From the IMG/VR virus record IMGVR_UViG_2740892439_000006, positions 1-53,794 of that record: DNA of 53,794 nt. The stretch is one strand, 5' to 3'. The notes beneath the pieces were generated by a model, which saw nothing but the letters and a program-made list of their open reading frames with translations, did no database searches and was not told where the DNA came from. Shown piece after piece: positions 42 through 30,071 of the stretch (the first letter of the stretch is position 1; the number at the start of each line of letters is the position of its first letter). The stretch comes from a virus. Lineage: Duplodnaviria > Heunggongvirae > Uroviricota > Caudoviricetes. Both the position numbers and the translations under genes were made by a program.

Positions 42-467
42 TTGTCCGGGAAGCTGTTAGCTCTATTAGCTAAAGCACCTACGGAATGGTTTAAGCCAGT
101 CGTTATCAATCCACACTTCCTGGATTACGGATCTGTTCGCACTCGTAACGAACTCAAAAACCTACTGGCGCATGGATTCATTCGACACCGTGCCGGGAAA
201 GGCTATCAGTTAGCGATTGCGCCAGAAGAGGCCGTGCGGCTATTCGCATATCGTGACAGCCAGACAAAAGCTCGGGTAATAGCTCAAATACTTCATAACG
301 GCAGCACCTATGCCCGCCAGTTTGGCGGCGACACGTCGCAGTTCTTGCGGGCGGTGCGATCGCTGGAGGCGCAAGGAATTATTGAAAGTTCCTGTCTTCC
401 TGTTCCTACCGTTCCACATATCAAACGTCGGGTTTACACCTTCACGCAGAGAGCTAAAAAACAATGA
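42..467 (+). CDS. hypothetical phage protein
   Basis: 141 aa ORF; stop overlaps start of next ORF (coupling). Confidence 0.4.
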   Translation: MSGKLLALLAKAPTEWFKPVVINPHFLDYGSVRTRNELKNLLAHGFIRHRAGKGYQLAIAPEEAVRLFAYRDSQTKARVIAQILHNGSTYARQFGGDTSQFLRAVRSLEAQGIIESSCLPVPTVPHIKRRVYTFTQRAKKQ

Positions 468-957
468 TTTACGTAAAAGTGAAACGCCTACATCTGGCAG
501 CAAAACTTCCAGCTTATGCCACCTCCGGATCGGCGGCGATGGATTTTGAGGCTGTTGAAATAAAACCATGCGTCGATAGCAATGGTGCAATTTCCTCAAG
601 CTGGTGGGTGTATACCGGACTGGCTATGGAGATCCCGCCCGGCTGGTGTCTGAAACTCTATCCGCGATCCGGATTGGGCTGCAAAAAACATACTCGCCTG
701 GCTAACTGCGTAGGAATTATCGACTCCGATTATCGCGGTGAAATCATGGCAAAACTGATTACTGATCCCGGCGGGGAAGGCGTTTGTCTCAAGCAGGAAT
801 GGCTGTCATGCAAGGAATTTTTGAGCGTGTTGAACAAGTCTCACTAGTCGAGGTTGAGGAACTCAACGAAACGGAACGTGGTGCTGGTGGCTTTGGTAGC
901 ACATCGGAAGGCCACTTTGAAATTAAGCGTTCACCGCTTCAGTACGAAAAGTTATAA
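464..957 (+). pseudogene. dut: dUTP diphosphatase (dUTPase), reading frame broken near 790-800
   Basis: N-part has dUTPase motifs (AYATSGSAAMD, RSGLG, GIIDSDYRGEI); C-terminal motif ERGAGGFGSTS continues in the minus-one frame (808..957); inserting one G in aagca->aaggca restores a single ORF. Confidence 0.6.
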
Positions 958-971
958 GCAGAGAAAAGACT

Positions 972-1649
972 ATGAATAACATGGCAACGAAAGAGCTTTT
1001 TAAGTTCCTTCCCAAATACAAAGCTCACAAAAACGTTAGTGCATCGAAAATCAAAAATGTTGTTATTTTCGGAGTAACTGATGCCCCACTTTGGGGCTGC
1101 ATCGAACTCGTTGAACCAAAAGGGGCAACAGTTTGTGTTGACGCAATGTTTTTACAAAAACACCGACCAAAAACTGGCGGGTATCTGATCGTTTATGAAA
1201 ACGGTTATCTGTTCTATGCCCCGGAGAAACCATTTGAGGAACGCTATGGCCTGGTTAACGACGCCTCCAAAAATGGAACCACGGTCATCATTACGGATGA
1301 CAACGGCGTGATGATTAATCTTACCGGGAGCGTAACTATTTCTGCTGGTGGCATCACCACCCAGCAAGAAGAAATCGACCTTGAAGCAGCCGACTTTTCT
1401 GACGCGCTGATGTGGCTGAAGGATGGCAAGAAAGTTGCTCGACGCGGGTGGAACGGCGAAAACCAATTCTGCTGGCTGGTTCCTGAAGGACAGTACCCGG
1501 CACGAATGGAAGCCATTAAGGGATATTTCCCCGGCGACCTCGTTCCGTATGGTGCTTATTTCGCCTTAAAAAATGCACAAGGTGTAGTTGTTCCGTGGGT
1601 TCCTTCTGTAGGCGACTTACTGGCATGTGACTGGTTTGTAGTGGAGTGA
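972..1649 (+). CDS. phage protein with C-terminal DUF2829-like (Tad2-like) domain
   Basis: C-terminus ...ALMWLKDGKKVARRGWNGEN...DLLACDWFVV matches remembered DUF2829 pattern; RBS gagaaaag upstream. Confidence 0.5.
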   Translation: MNNMATKELFKFLPKYKAHKNVSASKIKNVVIFGVTDAPLWGCIELVEPKGATVCVDAMFLQKHRPKTGGYLIVYENGYLFYAPEKPFEERYGLVNDASKNGTTVIITDDNGVMINLTGSVTISAGGITTQQEEIDLEAADFSDALMWLKDGKKVARRGWNGENQFCWLVPEGQYPARMEAIKGYFPGDLVPYGAYFALKNAQGVVVPWVPSVGDLLACDWFVVE

Positions 1650-1655
1650 TTTGAC

Positions 1656-2099
1656 ATGGAAAGCACCAAAACAATTCAATACCGCTTGCGTAATGGCCTG
1701 CTGGTGGCTGTTAACGCCGACATGTCACTGCCGTTTGACACGATTGAACGCACTATCATGACGTATCTCGGCTTTAATGAAGAGCTGAATGAAGAGCATG
1801 GCGTAGCTATATGGAGTGATGCAGACAGCGGCGTTCGTCGTTACATCACCGCCAGGGGCAAAGACTACTCTCTGGAAGAACTGTTTACCCTTGCGCAGTC
1901 TTTCGAATGTGTAGCATTAGACCTGTTTAATGATCCTGCTATAGCGCAACGACTTATACGCGAGCTTGGGCTATCCGTTACACCAATTATCTTTAAAAAT
2001 GGCAGCCTGACTGGCACATGGCGCGTAGAACGCATCTCAAACTACCTTCCATATAACCGACAGTTAAATGGAGTAATCTCCGGCGTTAATCAGCCGTAG
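1656..2099 (+). CDS. hypothetical phage protein
   Basis: 147 aa ORF, tight spacing with upstream gene. Confidence 0.4.
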   Translation: MESTKTIQYRLRNGLLVAVNADMSLPFDTIERTIMTYLGFNEELNEEHGVAIWSDADSGVRRYITARGKDYSLEELFTLAQSFECVALDLFNDPAIAQRLIRELGLSVTPIIFKNGSLTGTWRVERISNYLPYNRQLNGVISGVNQP

Positions 2100-2131
2100 C
2101 GTGTGAAAATGTAAACCTGGTTGTCGCTGTT

Positions 2132-2431
2132 TTGGCAACCGCATGTCGTGTTATCGGTTTGGCTAAACAGGCATTTATTCATTTCCCAAATGGTGCAGAA
2201 GGTAGCGCAGAGATTATCGCGTGTGATTTCGAATTTACCTGGATGCTACGCGAATATCTGGACCAAACAGTATTCCGTGCCGAAGAACTGGATATGTATA
2301 TCACGTCAACGATTCCAGACGATGTGCGAGCTGAAGCAATCGCTATAGCCAGGGCGAAATGCCGTGCGGCGATTGCAGAACGGGCCAAAGAAGAACAGTC
2401 CAATGATACAGCGGCAGAAGAGGTGAAATAA
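2132..2431 (+). CDS. hypothetical protein
   Basis: 99 aa ORF followed by intrinsic terminator. Confidence 0.4.
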   Translation: MATACRVIGLAKQAFIHFPNGAEGSAEIIACDFEFTWMLREYLDQTVFRAEELDMYITSTIPDDVRAEAIAIARAKCRAAIAERAKEEQSNDTAAEEVK

Positions 2432-2433
2432 CA

Positions 2434-2466
2434 AAAAGCCCGCTTGGTATGGCGGGCTTCTTTTCA
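2434..2466. terminator. bidirectional rho-independent terminator
   Basis: stem agcccgc/gcgggct with A-run upstream and T-run downstream, between convergent genes. Confidence 0.6.
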
Positions 2467-3903: not shown

Positions 3904-4827
3904 TTAGCCACGGTTAACCTCCTGCGGCGGTTCTGGTAGAGGCATCCAGTGAGTTACTTTCGATGCCGGTTCTTCCCCATCATCAGTAACTGCCCACCAT
4001 TTGTTTCTCGACCAATCGTAATACCCTTCGAAGGTATCGCACTCAGTCCAGGCGTAAGACTTACCCCAACACCAAACATACTGTTTATCGTTCGGCATTC
4101 GCTCACTACAGCTTATCCAACTATCCGGAGTTGCCGGATAGTTGCCATTCACAAGGTCAGCTCGAACATATAGCGTGTCATCATGGTGTTGATTGTGGCT
4201 GCACCACGTTAATTCGCTTAACTCGCCATCTTCTGGCCATACTCCAGCTGTTTGCAGCCAGATATGGGCTGGCGCATCTTGGCAAGGTGTATTAACTGGA
4301 AACTTGTAAGTTTGGCTTACAGGTTGGCTACCCTGAAGCATGGCAGCGTGGCAGGCATACTCAACGCCCTTAACTGCATCTGCGCAGTAGTTATAGCGAT
4401 TGCATTCCACTAATTTCCGTTTGAGTTTTTCAATTGCCTGCGCGACAACAGCCTGTATTGGCGGAACGGCTGTTTGCTCTCGAACGTCATTAGTCGCTAT
4501 CGGTTCTGCTGCCAACTGACTGGCATATTTGTTAATGGTAACGATAAGCTCTTGCTCGGCCTCATCCAGACAATCACCGATACCTCGCCTGTCACCGTCA
4601 AAATCATCGAAATCGGCACGAATCCTGGCAACCTCCCGGATTGCGGACAACACTTCACCAGGAATAAGCGGAGAGTTGCCCGATAGTACATTCTGCTCCA
4701 GTGATGCCAGAGCAATTCGTGCCAGTTCTTCCGCTTCTTCTGCTGGCAGTACAACGTTGCTACCAGGTCCGTATGTTTCGCGCCACTGCTTGATTGTCAG
4801 CAGTCGCTCTTTGGTAATAGTGGTCAT
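3904..4827 (-). CDS. DUF551-like C-terminal domain phage protein
   Basis: 307 aa; C-terminal WISCSERMP...VTHWMPLPEPP pattern; RBS ggagag upstream. Confidence 0.5.
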   Translation of the reverse strand: MTTITKERLLTIKQWRETYGPGSNVVLPAEEAEELARIALASLEQNVLSGNSPLIPGEVLSAIREVARIRADFDDFDGDRRGIGDCLDEAEQELIVTINKYASQLAAEPIATNDVREQTAVPPIQAVVAQAIEKLKRKLVECNRYNYCADAVKGVEYACHAAMLQGSQPVSQTYKFPVNTPCQDAPAHIWLQTAGVWPEDGELSELTWCSHNQHHDDTLYVRADLVNGNYPATPDSWISCSERMPNDKQYVWCWGKSYAWTECDTFEGYYDWSRNKWWAVTDDGEEPASKVTHWMPLPEPPQEVNRG

Positions 4828-28409: not shown

Positions 28410-30071
28410 TTAACCTAACTTCGCCCAGGTATCACGCAGCCCAACGGTGCGGTTAAATACCGGTTTTTCCGCCGTGGAATGGCGGCTGTCGAGGCAGAAA
28501 TAACCTTCACGCTCAAACTGGAATGCTTTACCCGCTACCGCGTCTTTCAGCGACGGTTCAGCAAAACCCTGTTTGATCACCAGCGATTCCGGGTTAATCA
28601 CCGACAGGAAATCATCCGCAGCACCTGGGTTCGGCACGCTGAACAGACGATCGTACAGGCGGATTTCAACCGGCAGCGCATGTGCCGCGCTCACCCAGTG
28701 AATAACGCCTTTCACTTTACGACCATCTGCCGGATCTTTGCTTAAGGTGTCGGCGTCATAAGTACAGAAGATGGTGGTGATATTGCCTTCGGCATCTTTC
28801 TCCACGCGTTCAGCCTTAATGACGTAAGCATTACGCAGACGCACTTCTTTACCCAGCACCAGACGTTTGTACTGCTTGTTAGCTTCTTCGCGGAAATCGG
28901 CGCGGTCGATCCAAATCTCACCGCTAAACGGCACCTGACGGCTACCCATTTCCGGTTTGTTTGGATGGTTCGGCATGGTGACCATTTCGCCTTCGCCCTG
29001 GTAGTTTTCGATAACCAGTTTCACCGGATCGATAACCGCCATTGCGCGCGGGGCATTTTCGTTGAGATCTTCACGGATGCAGGATTCCAGCGACGCCATT
29101 TCAATGGTGTTGTCCTGCTTGGTCACGCCGATGCGTTTGCAGAACTCACGAATAGAAGCCGCAGTGTAACCACGACGACGCAGACCGGAAATGGTCGGCA
29201 TACGCGGGTCATCCCAGCCTTCAACGTGCTTGTCGGTCACCAGCAGGTTCAGCTTACGCTTGGACATCACAGTGTATTCCAGATTCAGGCGCGAGAATTC
29301 GTACTGGCGCGGGTGAACAGGAATGGTGATGTTGTCCAGTACCCAGTCATACAGACGACGGTTGTCCTGGAACTCAAGCGTACACAGAGAGTGCGTAATA
29401 CCTTCCAGCGCATCGCTGATGCAGTGGGTAAAGTCGTACATCGGGTAGATGCACCACTTGTTACCAGTCTGGTGGTGTTCAGCAAATTTAATGCGGTACA
29501 GCACCGGATCGCGCATTACGATAAATGGCGACGCCATGTCGATTTTCGCACGCAGGCAGGCTTTACCTTCTTCAAAACCACCGGCACGCATTTTTTCGAA
29601 CAGCGCCAGGTTCTCTTCAACGCTGCGGTCGCGGTACGGGCTGTTTTTACCCGGCTGCGTCAGGGTGCCACGATATTCGCGGATCTGTTCCGGCGTCAGT
29701 TCATCAACGTACGCCAGGCCTTTATTGATCAGTTCAACAGCATAGGCATGGAGTTTGTCAAAATAATCGGAGGAGTAACGGATGTTGCCAGACCAGTGAA
29801 AACCTAACCATTCAACGTCGTTTTTAATCGACTCGACGTACTCGATATCTTCTTTTACCGGGTTAGTGTCGTCGAAACGCAGGTTGCACTGGCCTTTATA
29901 GTCCTGGGCGATCCCGAAGTTCAGGCAGATAGATTTCGCATGACCAATATGCAGATAGCCATTCGGTTCCGGCGGGAAACGGGTATGTACTGTGGTGTGC
30001 TTACCACTGGCCAGATCTTCATCGATGATCTGACGAATAAAGTTAGTCGGGCGGGCTTCTGCCTCACTCAT
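28410..30071 (-). CDS. glnS: glutaminyl-tRNA synthetase
   Basis: 553 aa; N-terminus [24 protein letters not shown] and HIGH-type motif region match E. coli GlnS as recalled; extreme C-terminus reads ...DTWAKLG. Confidence 0.95.

Follow-up and report, generated by a model that had tools for sequence, protein, structure and literature searches.

The window analysed here is the whole stretch of viral DNA, 53,794 nucleotides long. Its first 6 kb were 99.4% identical to the E. coli plasmid NZ_CP148392.1 and, where alignable, 97% identical to Escherichia phage D6, a phage-plasmid of the P1 family; the P1-family relatives RCS47 and SJ46 were among the matches. The window is a D6-like, P1-family phage-plasmid of E. 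coli. The open reading frame 972..1649 (plus strand), which an earlier note made from the sequence alone had singled out, is a genuine gene with an ATG start and a TGA stop, and the strings quoted in that note were present in its 225-amino-acid (aa) translation. The product was 100% identical to WP_001061874.1 (encoded in NZ_CP148392.1 and NZ_CP050999.1), and the D6 counterpart of the gene is orf114. More than 120 homologues of the 225-aa protein were retrieved in the homologue search. The full-length allele is the common one (P0001, a cluster 97% identical to it, has 389 member sequences), and the homologue list also held several natural shorter variants of 136–167 aa.

The gene belongs to a co-directional block with the order cre-like recombinase, two hypothetical genes, dUTPase, Tad2 gene and isaA-like gene (Table 1). 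A hairpin downstream likely closes the operon as a bidirectional terminator, and beyond it phd/doc and a umuD-like gene lie on the opposite strand. The promoter scan upstream of the operon detected no sigma-70-like site, and NCBIfam gave no match for the 225-aa protein or the neighbouring genes. Two neighbours are frameshifted in the window relative to NZ_CP148392.1. At about position 794, 1 bp was lost from a short C run (window CTCAAG-CAGGA; plasmid CTCAAGCCTGGA), leaving dut as a 127-aa ORF with an out-of-frame remainder, while dut of the plasmid is intact (164 aa); the deletion may be an indel error of the assembly, or dut may be a true pseudogene here. A second 1-bp loss from a C run, at about 2094 (window AATCAG-CCGT; plasmid AATCAGCCCGT), divides the isaA-like gene into 1656..2099 and 2132..2431, which in the reference plasmid form one CDS of 258 aa. 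With both adjoining genes frameshifted, this element may not express the operon. The gene was found in 213 of the 5,426 complete E. coli genomes; 213 of its locations were plasmid-borne and 7 chromosomal. It is therefore counted among the accessory genes of a phage-plasmid lineage that is common.

Two further genes of the window were recorded. A full-length 553-aa protein is encoded at 28410..30071 (minus strand) and was 99% identical to the product of an NZ_CP148392.1 gene annotated as glnS (glutamine--tRNA ligase), which is unusual phage-plasmid cargo. Between the umuD-like gene and more small accessory genes, a 307-aa ORF (3904..4827, minus strand) has a C-terminal DUF551 (Pfam, E = 9.8e-17) preceded by a long N-terminal part with no Pfam match.

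Table 1. Features at and around the gene, in window coordinates
Feature	Position	Strand	Description
dUTPase gene (dut)	464..957	+	Upstream, same operon; broken by a 1-bp deletion near 794
Complete CDS	972..1649	+	OB-fold domain, linker and Tad2-like domain; ORF list, 100% match to WP_001061874.1
N-terminal OB-fold domain	1005..1259	+	Residues ~12–96; apparently related to the phage L Dec OB-fold; unnamed large phage family
In-frame deletion in phage D6 orf114	1032..1268	+	Residues 21–99; BLASTP against the window protein
Linker	1260..1379	+	Residues 97–136; beta-rich TVIITDDNGVMINLTGSVTISAGG, then acidic QQEEIDLEAA; mosaic between alleles
Tad2-like domain	1380..1646	+	Residues 137–225; PF11195, identity to ModTad2, Foldseek
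GWNG motif (G159-W160-N161-G162)	1446..1457	+	Corresponds to SPO1 Tad2 W25/N26 and HgmTad2 W21/N22/G23 (ligand contacts)
Variable insertion between strands	1482..1553	+	Residues ~171–194, 24 aa; alignments
WVPSVGD motif (W209...S212...D215)	1596..1616	+	Corresponds to SPO1 Tad2 W73/S76/D79 and HgmTad2 W87/S90/D93
isaA-like gene	1656..2431	+	Downstream, same operon; split by a 1-bp deletion near 2094
G+C-rich hairpin followed by a T run, AAAAAGCCCGCTTGGTATGGCGGGCTTCTTTTC	2433..2465	.	Likely bidirectional terminator

The C-terminal Tad2-like domain

The earlier note had assigned the C-terminal ~80 residues to DUF2829, and had named a Pfam HMM search and a structural comparison with Tad2 as checks. 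Both upheld the assignment. Residues 141–224 matched PF11195 ('Tad2-like', formerly DUF2829) over profile positions 2–73 of 73 with 80 bits (E = 1.8e-22; gathering cut-off 25 bits), and the predicted C-terminal structure resembled solved Tad2 folds. The sequence search against the PDB returned five differently named Tad2 proteins, the best match being ModTad2 (9eib, E = 5.5e-20) together with its apo form (8v3e), followed by HgmTad2/AcrIIA7 (8kbi, E = 3.7e-10), SPO1 Tad2 (8sme, E = 6e-9) and SptTad2. As a sequence match, the relationship of the 225-aa protein to the Tad2 family is far beyond chance. The assignment is not new, however: RefSeq already labels the protein 'DUF2829 domain-containing protein', and the Tad2 call alone therefore adds little.

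The full-length protein was modelled with AlphaFold2 (AF2) as a monomer, with 28 homologues in the alignment and a mean pLDDT of 76.6. The C-terminal part followed the Tad2 layout of an initial helix and an antiparallel sheet interrupted by a variable insertion: helices were predicted at residues 142–150, 177–182 and 213–217, and strands at 154–157, 166–170, 196–200, 206–209 and 221–224; pLDDT was only 50–68 in the internal insertion of the Tad2 domain. When the C-terminal model was compared with solved Tad2 structures in Foldseek, the probability was 1.00 and the TM-score on the target 0.74–0.87 (9eib, 8v3e, 8smf and 8kbj). The best matches were all solved Tad2 structures, with hisADPR-bound ModTad2 at the top (46% identity). 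The alpha1 helix, which mediates tetramerisation in Tad2, was nearly invariant in the alignment of homologues. On both sequence and model, the C-terminal domain is a genuine Tad2-family fold whose canonical pocket (W160/N161 and W209/S212/D215) is intact, and agrees with the family at every sequence- and fold-level criterion.

Comparison with the characterised members placed the domain nearest to ModTad2 (also MoTad2; from a Myroides odoratus prophage). The two share the fold, 46% identity over the entire 88-residue domain, the length of the insertion and the pocket motifs GWNG and W-x-PS-x-x-D. ModTad2 is a single domain of 89 aa, whereas the window protein has 136 extra N-terminal residues, forming the OB-fold and the linker, and its ligand is only predicted. 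SPO1 Tad2 (gp34.65; 8sme/8smf/8smg), the founding gcADPR anti-Thoeris sponge, blocks type I Thoeris and not type II. It belongs to the same Pfam family and fold, and its W25, N26, W73, S76 and D79 correspond to W160, N161, W209, S212 and D215 of the window protein; the identity is only ~35%, the insertion differs, and one contact is altered, as T78 of SPO1 Tad2 (T92 of HgmTad2) is replaced by Gly214. HgmTad2/AcrIIA7 (8kbi–8kbm) has the Tad2 fold and the conserved gcADPR pocket in common with the window protein, but its long insertion (41 aa, binding cyclic dinucleotides) is absent from the latter, as are the cyclic-dinucleotide residues R31 and N85.

The N-terminal OB-fold and its family

Upstream of the Tad2-like domain, the earlier note had placed an N-terminal region of ~140 aa of unknown function. 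The extra region is present, but it is not featureless: it comprises an OB-fold and a linker. The N-domain model (pLDDT 89.8, pTM 0.81; 49-sequence alignment) was a small beta-barrel in which one helix lies between strands and another at the C-terminus. When its profile was compared with solved structures, phage L Dec (6e3c) was matched at E = 1.1e-5, and the only other match had E = 0.94. Like Dec, with which it is 28% identical, the N-domain has an unusual OB-fold with an extra beta0 strand, the inter-strand helix and the C-terminal helix. Dec consists of this OB-fold and a C-terminal spike, a three-stranded beta-helix that forms as a trimer on capsids and has no ordered structure in monomers. 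The phmmer alignment with Dec extended to Dec residue 122, and the linker aligned with the first part of the spike; the spike-like segment after the OB-fold covers ~35 residues, was modelled with low pLDDT in the monomer (50–60 across the linker) and gave no match to Pfam fibre repeats. By its sequence, the OB-fold family seems to share its evolutionary origin with the OB-fold by which Dec binds capsids. The setting is different: Dec is made late, as a structural protein, and forms trimers on capsids, whereas the window gene lies in an accessory operon and would encode a cytoplasmic sponge fusion, and most members of the OB-fold family have no spike region.

Other identities were considered for the N-domain and rejected. 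Residues 1–100 had no sequence or fold match to Tad1, Acb2, Acb4, Sequestin, Lockin, TadIV-1 or RyR-type proteins; for Lockin, TadIV-1, Bes1/Bes2 and RyR-type sponges, neither sequence nor fold matched and the descriptions differ as well. A Pfam match to EF-P OB at residues 133–163 (E = 0.17) was regarded as noise.

The N-domain of this allele keeps H19, K20, K26, H64, GGY, Y75, Y79, F88, E89 and Y92, and departs from the family at five positions that are 82–97% conserved: C18A (82% Cys), D77N (90% Asp), S81F (97% Ser), S83A (94% Ser) and G91R (94% Gly). The consensus residues are retained in other alleles of this locus, and canonical stand-alone members, such as CDS0076 of Escherichia phage Dewey and those of Klebsiella phages, keep C18, D77, S81 and S83. 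The domain is basic here and acidic on the family average; net charge and pI do not discriminate between the hypotheses discussed below. In phage D6, orf114 (L002:2594-3034) retains residues 1–20, and residues 100–225 (126 residues) are 100% identical. Because D6 has deleted residues 21–99 cleanly, the N-domain is dispensable for a viable phage and may contribute nothing. It may be decaying in this lineage.

The family to which the N-domain belongs is large. A word-indexed search with the N-domain profile gave no more than 12 fragments, and an exhaustive search of representatives was used instead. With thresholds of E <= 1e-3 and E <= 1e-10, it recovered 4,373 and 1,590 cluster representatives, respectively; a profile built from canonical stand-alone members yielded 5,326 clusters at E <= 1e-5. 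Counted at 90% identity, the family exceeds 5,000 clusters, most of them stand-alone proteins of 80–100 aa. The best 120 of the 5,326 clusters were 80–153 aa long and had no functional name; their precomputed Pfam annotations, with the newer Pfam release included, held no match except one fusion to Sequestin (PF21825). There is no Pfam or NCBIfam model for the family, and no function was obtained from Pfam, PHROGs or NCBIfam, the last of these searched with stand-alone members too. Two strikingly conserved motifs rich in polar and aromatic residues, PxYxCHKxVxAxKI and KHxPxxGGYxVxYEDGYxSYSPAxAFExGY, characterise the family. Members were found in phages of Klebsiella, Ralstonia, Pseudomonas, Burkholderia, Caulobacter and E. 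coli, and lie among small accessory genes, even those annotated as 'capsid decoration protein'. Giant proteins of 1,781–4,559 aa (P0129, P0133, P0143, P0173 and P0235) were among the highest scorers when the N-domain profile was searched. They were discarded as family members, being matched only at the GGY..Y.DG hairpin, by 3–18 partial matches each, and are probably repeat artefacts; because they are included in it, the raw count of family matches is slightly inflated.

Fusion partners were examined in two samples. Among 141 representatives in the first, the OB-fold stood alone in 42, was N-terminal in a longer protein in 84 and occurred in two copies in 6. Tandem duplicates of the domain are found as well. 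The Pfam partners were Sequestin (PF21825; 14), Tad2 (13), Acb4 (PF13876; 5) and the Acb2/Tad1 hairpin (2), besides three single weak matches. Since the query profile had been built from Tad2 fusions, this sample is biased towards relatives of such fusions, and a second, independent sample was therefore drawn from IMG/VR with a profile of stand-alone members (7-sequence alignment; 49 non-redundant loci), the only sample without that bias. Its 25 multi-domain proteins contained Tad2 and Acb4 three times each, Sequestin three times, RyR once and one marginal zinc ribbon. When same-strand neighbours were added (132 proteins), the counts were five for Acb4, four each for Tad2 and Sequestin, and one each for Acb2/Tad1 and RyR; the remaining families among the 132 proteins were ordinary phage genes, each seen once. 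Nearly every Pfam domain fused to the OB-fold in the two samples is thus a known immune-signal sponge family, and sponge genes appear to be enriched among the immediate neighbours of family members.

Fusions of the OB-fold to a MazG-like pyrophosphatase were observed as well (IMG/VR loci L029, L083, L050 and others; BFVD A0A384WK77; phrog_37613). Many long family members have C-terminal extensions that are blank in Pfam, and these could hide further unrecognised anti-defence modules.

Two-module sponges are known. Acb4-Tad2 of Pasteurella phage Pm86 works experimentally, and Tad2-Sequestin fusions and the Acb4-Sequestin of phage Ab09 exist. The window protein resembles them in joining Tad2 through a linker to a small phage domain, and some of its relatives bear Sequestin after Tad2. 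The difference lies in the partner, here an unnamed OB-fold and no recognised sponge. Sequestin itself was discovered in a published screen for Pfam domains fused to Tad2 and Acb4, and a recent report added the RyR domain to the Thoeris sponges. The OB-fold escaped the Pfam-based screen because it has no Pfam model. In the literature search, no paper linking an OB-fold to sponges was found; both the combination of a Dec-like OB-fold with Tad2 and the association of the OB-fold family with sponges are undescribed in the literature searched.

Predicted function and alternatives

The product is probably an anti-defence protein of the phage-plasmid; its C-terminal Tad2 domain would act as a sponge, sequestering a second messenger of bacterial immunity. 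By homology, four copies would assemble through helix alpha1 into a Tad2 tetramer of two V-shaped dimers, with two pockets arising at protomer interfaces. These pockets would hold the signal made by TIR proteins tightly, the Thoeris effector ThsA would never be activated, and with ThsA silent the phage-plasmid could establish itself or replicate. The N-terminal OB-fold would hang from the tetramer on the 40-residue linker. Because its family is preferentially fused to, or encoded beside, five sponge families, it may be an accessory module against signalling that binds a second ligand or else acts together with sponges; in this allele it is perhaps partly degenerate.

Homologues of Tad2 sequester a broad range of ligands (3'cADPR, His-ADPR, N7-cADPR, cyclic dinucleotides or cUMP/cCMP), and specificity within the family cannot be read from sequence. 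We consider His-ADPR from type II Thoeris the most likely ligand, with 3'cADPR (gcADPR) as a possible further one and the Pycsar signals cUMP/cCMP as candidates for a second pocket. [quoted passage not shown] Because this nearest characterised relative binds His-ADPR and spares type I Thoeris, His-ADPR is ranked above gcADPR as the likelier target; it is favoured further because, in a survey of E. coli TIR proteins, those of type II Thoeris form cluster 1 of 64 (type I is cluster 9). The earlier note had proposed a sponge for gcADPR. The Tad2 family and the main contact residues speak for a sponge, and the gcADPR part is uncertain. A plain type I anti-Thoeris protein binding 1''-3'/1''-2' gcADPR in place of His-ADPR would fit the activity of most tested Tad2 homologues, which inhibit type I Thoeris, the occurrence of that system in E. 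coli and the retention of the W/N/W/D residues that hold gcADPR in SPO1 Tad2 and HgmTad2. ModTad2, however, shares those residues and leaves type I Thoeris unblocked, and the window domain resembles it (75 bits, 46% identity) far more than HgmTad2 (43 bits) or SPO1 Tad2 (39 bits, ~35%); this alternative is therefore judged unlikely. An anti-CRISPR of the AcrIIA7 type, or a sponge for c-di-GMP or other cyclic dinucleotides, is highly improbable. AcrIIA7/HgmTad2 is a DUF2829 protein with a significant match to the window protein, and binds cGG and cGAMP. Its anti-Cas9 activity was, however, not reproducible according to published work, and its dinucleotide site, contacted by R31, S47, F70 and N85, requires R31, N85 and an insertion of 35–41 residues between beta2 and beta5. 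In the window protein the insertion is about 24 residues long, V170 stands in the place of R31, and a gap beside P208 falls opposite N85; the alignment thus did not recover the HgmTad2-type dual-sponge site.

The role of the OB-fold was weighed in the same way. Given the fusions to sponge families and the sponge genes nearby, we tentatively propose that the family is a new anti-signalling module, acting as a sponge for another second messenger or as an obligate partner or protector of sponges. That the domain is a vestigial passenger in this allele and the protein works as a single-module Tad2 is rather doubtful. The five substitutions at highly conserved positions, the in-frame deletion of exactly this domain in D6 and the several shorter natural variants all agree with decay; against it, the domain still folds confidently in silico, the residues from H19 to Y92 listed above are kept, and the full-length allele is the common one. 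The homology to the capsid-binding OB-fold of Dec, continuing into the trimeric-spike part, and the annotation of some relatives as 'capsid decoration protein' could be read as signs of a structural protein whose OB-fold binds the virion while the linker trimerises. This is very unlikely. The genomic context placed the gene not with structural genes but in an accessory operon with a recombinase, a dUTPase and addiction genes, away from the head genes, and one relative with the decoration annotation lies among small hypothetical genes. Moreover, most family members are 80–100 aa long and lack the spike region, the fusion partners are cytoplasmic signal sponges, and trimerisation through a spike would be incompatible with the Tad2 tetramer.

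If the sponge prediction is right, ~4% of complete E. coli genomes would possess a phage-plasmid gene that can neutralise TIR-based immunity, which bears on the spread of P1/D6-like phage-plasmids. As a Tad2, the protein is of a known kind and already annotated; the part worth following is the OB-fold architecture and its association with sponges. The larger value would lie in this partner, which has a fusion signature with five sponge families, the same route by which Sequestin was discovered, and whose family is far more abundant than several named sponge families. Should the OB-fold bind a signal, it would represent a new family of viral immune antagonists, and it could be used as bait to catch bacterial signals still to be discovered, just as His-ADPR was caught with ModTad2. 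The D6 allele without the N-domain offers a ready-made natural control for the function of that domain.

The protein varies among related elements. Alleles that are otherwise ~90% identical (P0002, P0006, P0007, P0016 and P0024 were compared) carry at least three versions of the Tad2 insertion (1482..1553) and two versions of the beta-rich linker (1278..1367), while the junction EIDLEAADFSDALMWLK is almost invariant. The insertion region forms a second ligand pocket in other Tad2 proteins. At the sequence level, this mosaicism suggests module swapping, possibly diversifying ligand specificity. Further architectures were seen at or near the locus in related elements (homologues P0055, P0005, P0071 and P0097). 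They included a 241-aa dUTPase-Tad2 fusion, which probably arose by a deletion joining the two genes, a 306-aa homologue with a tail-fibre-repeat extension before the OB-fold, and proteins in which an OB-fold or another N-terminus is followed by Tad2 and then Sequestin.
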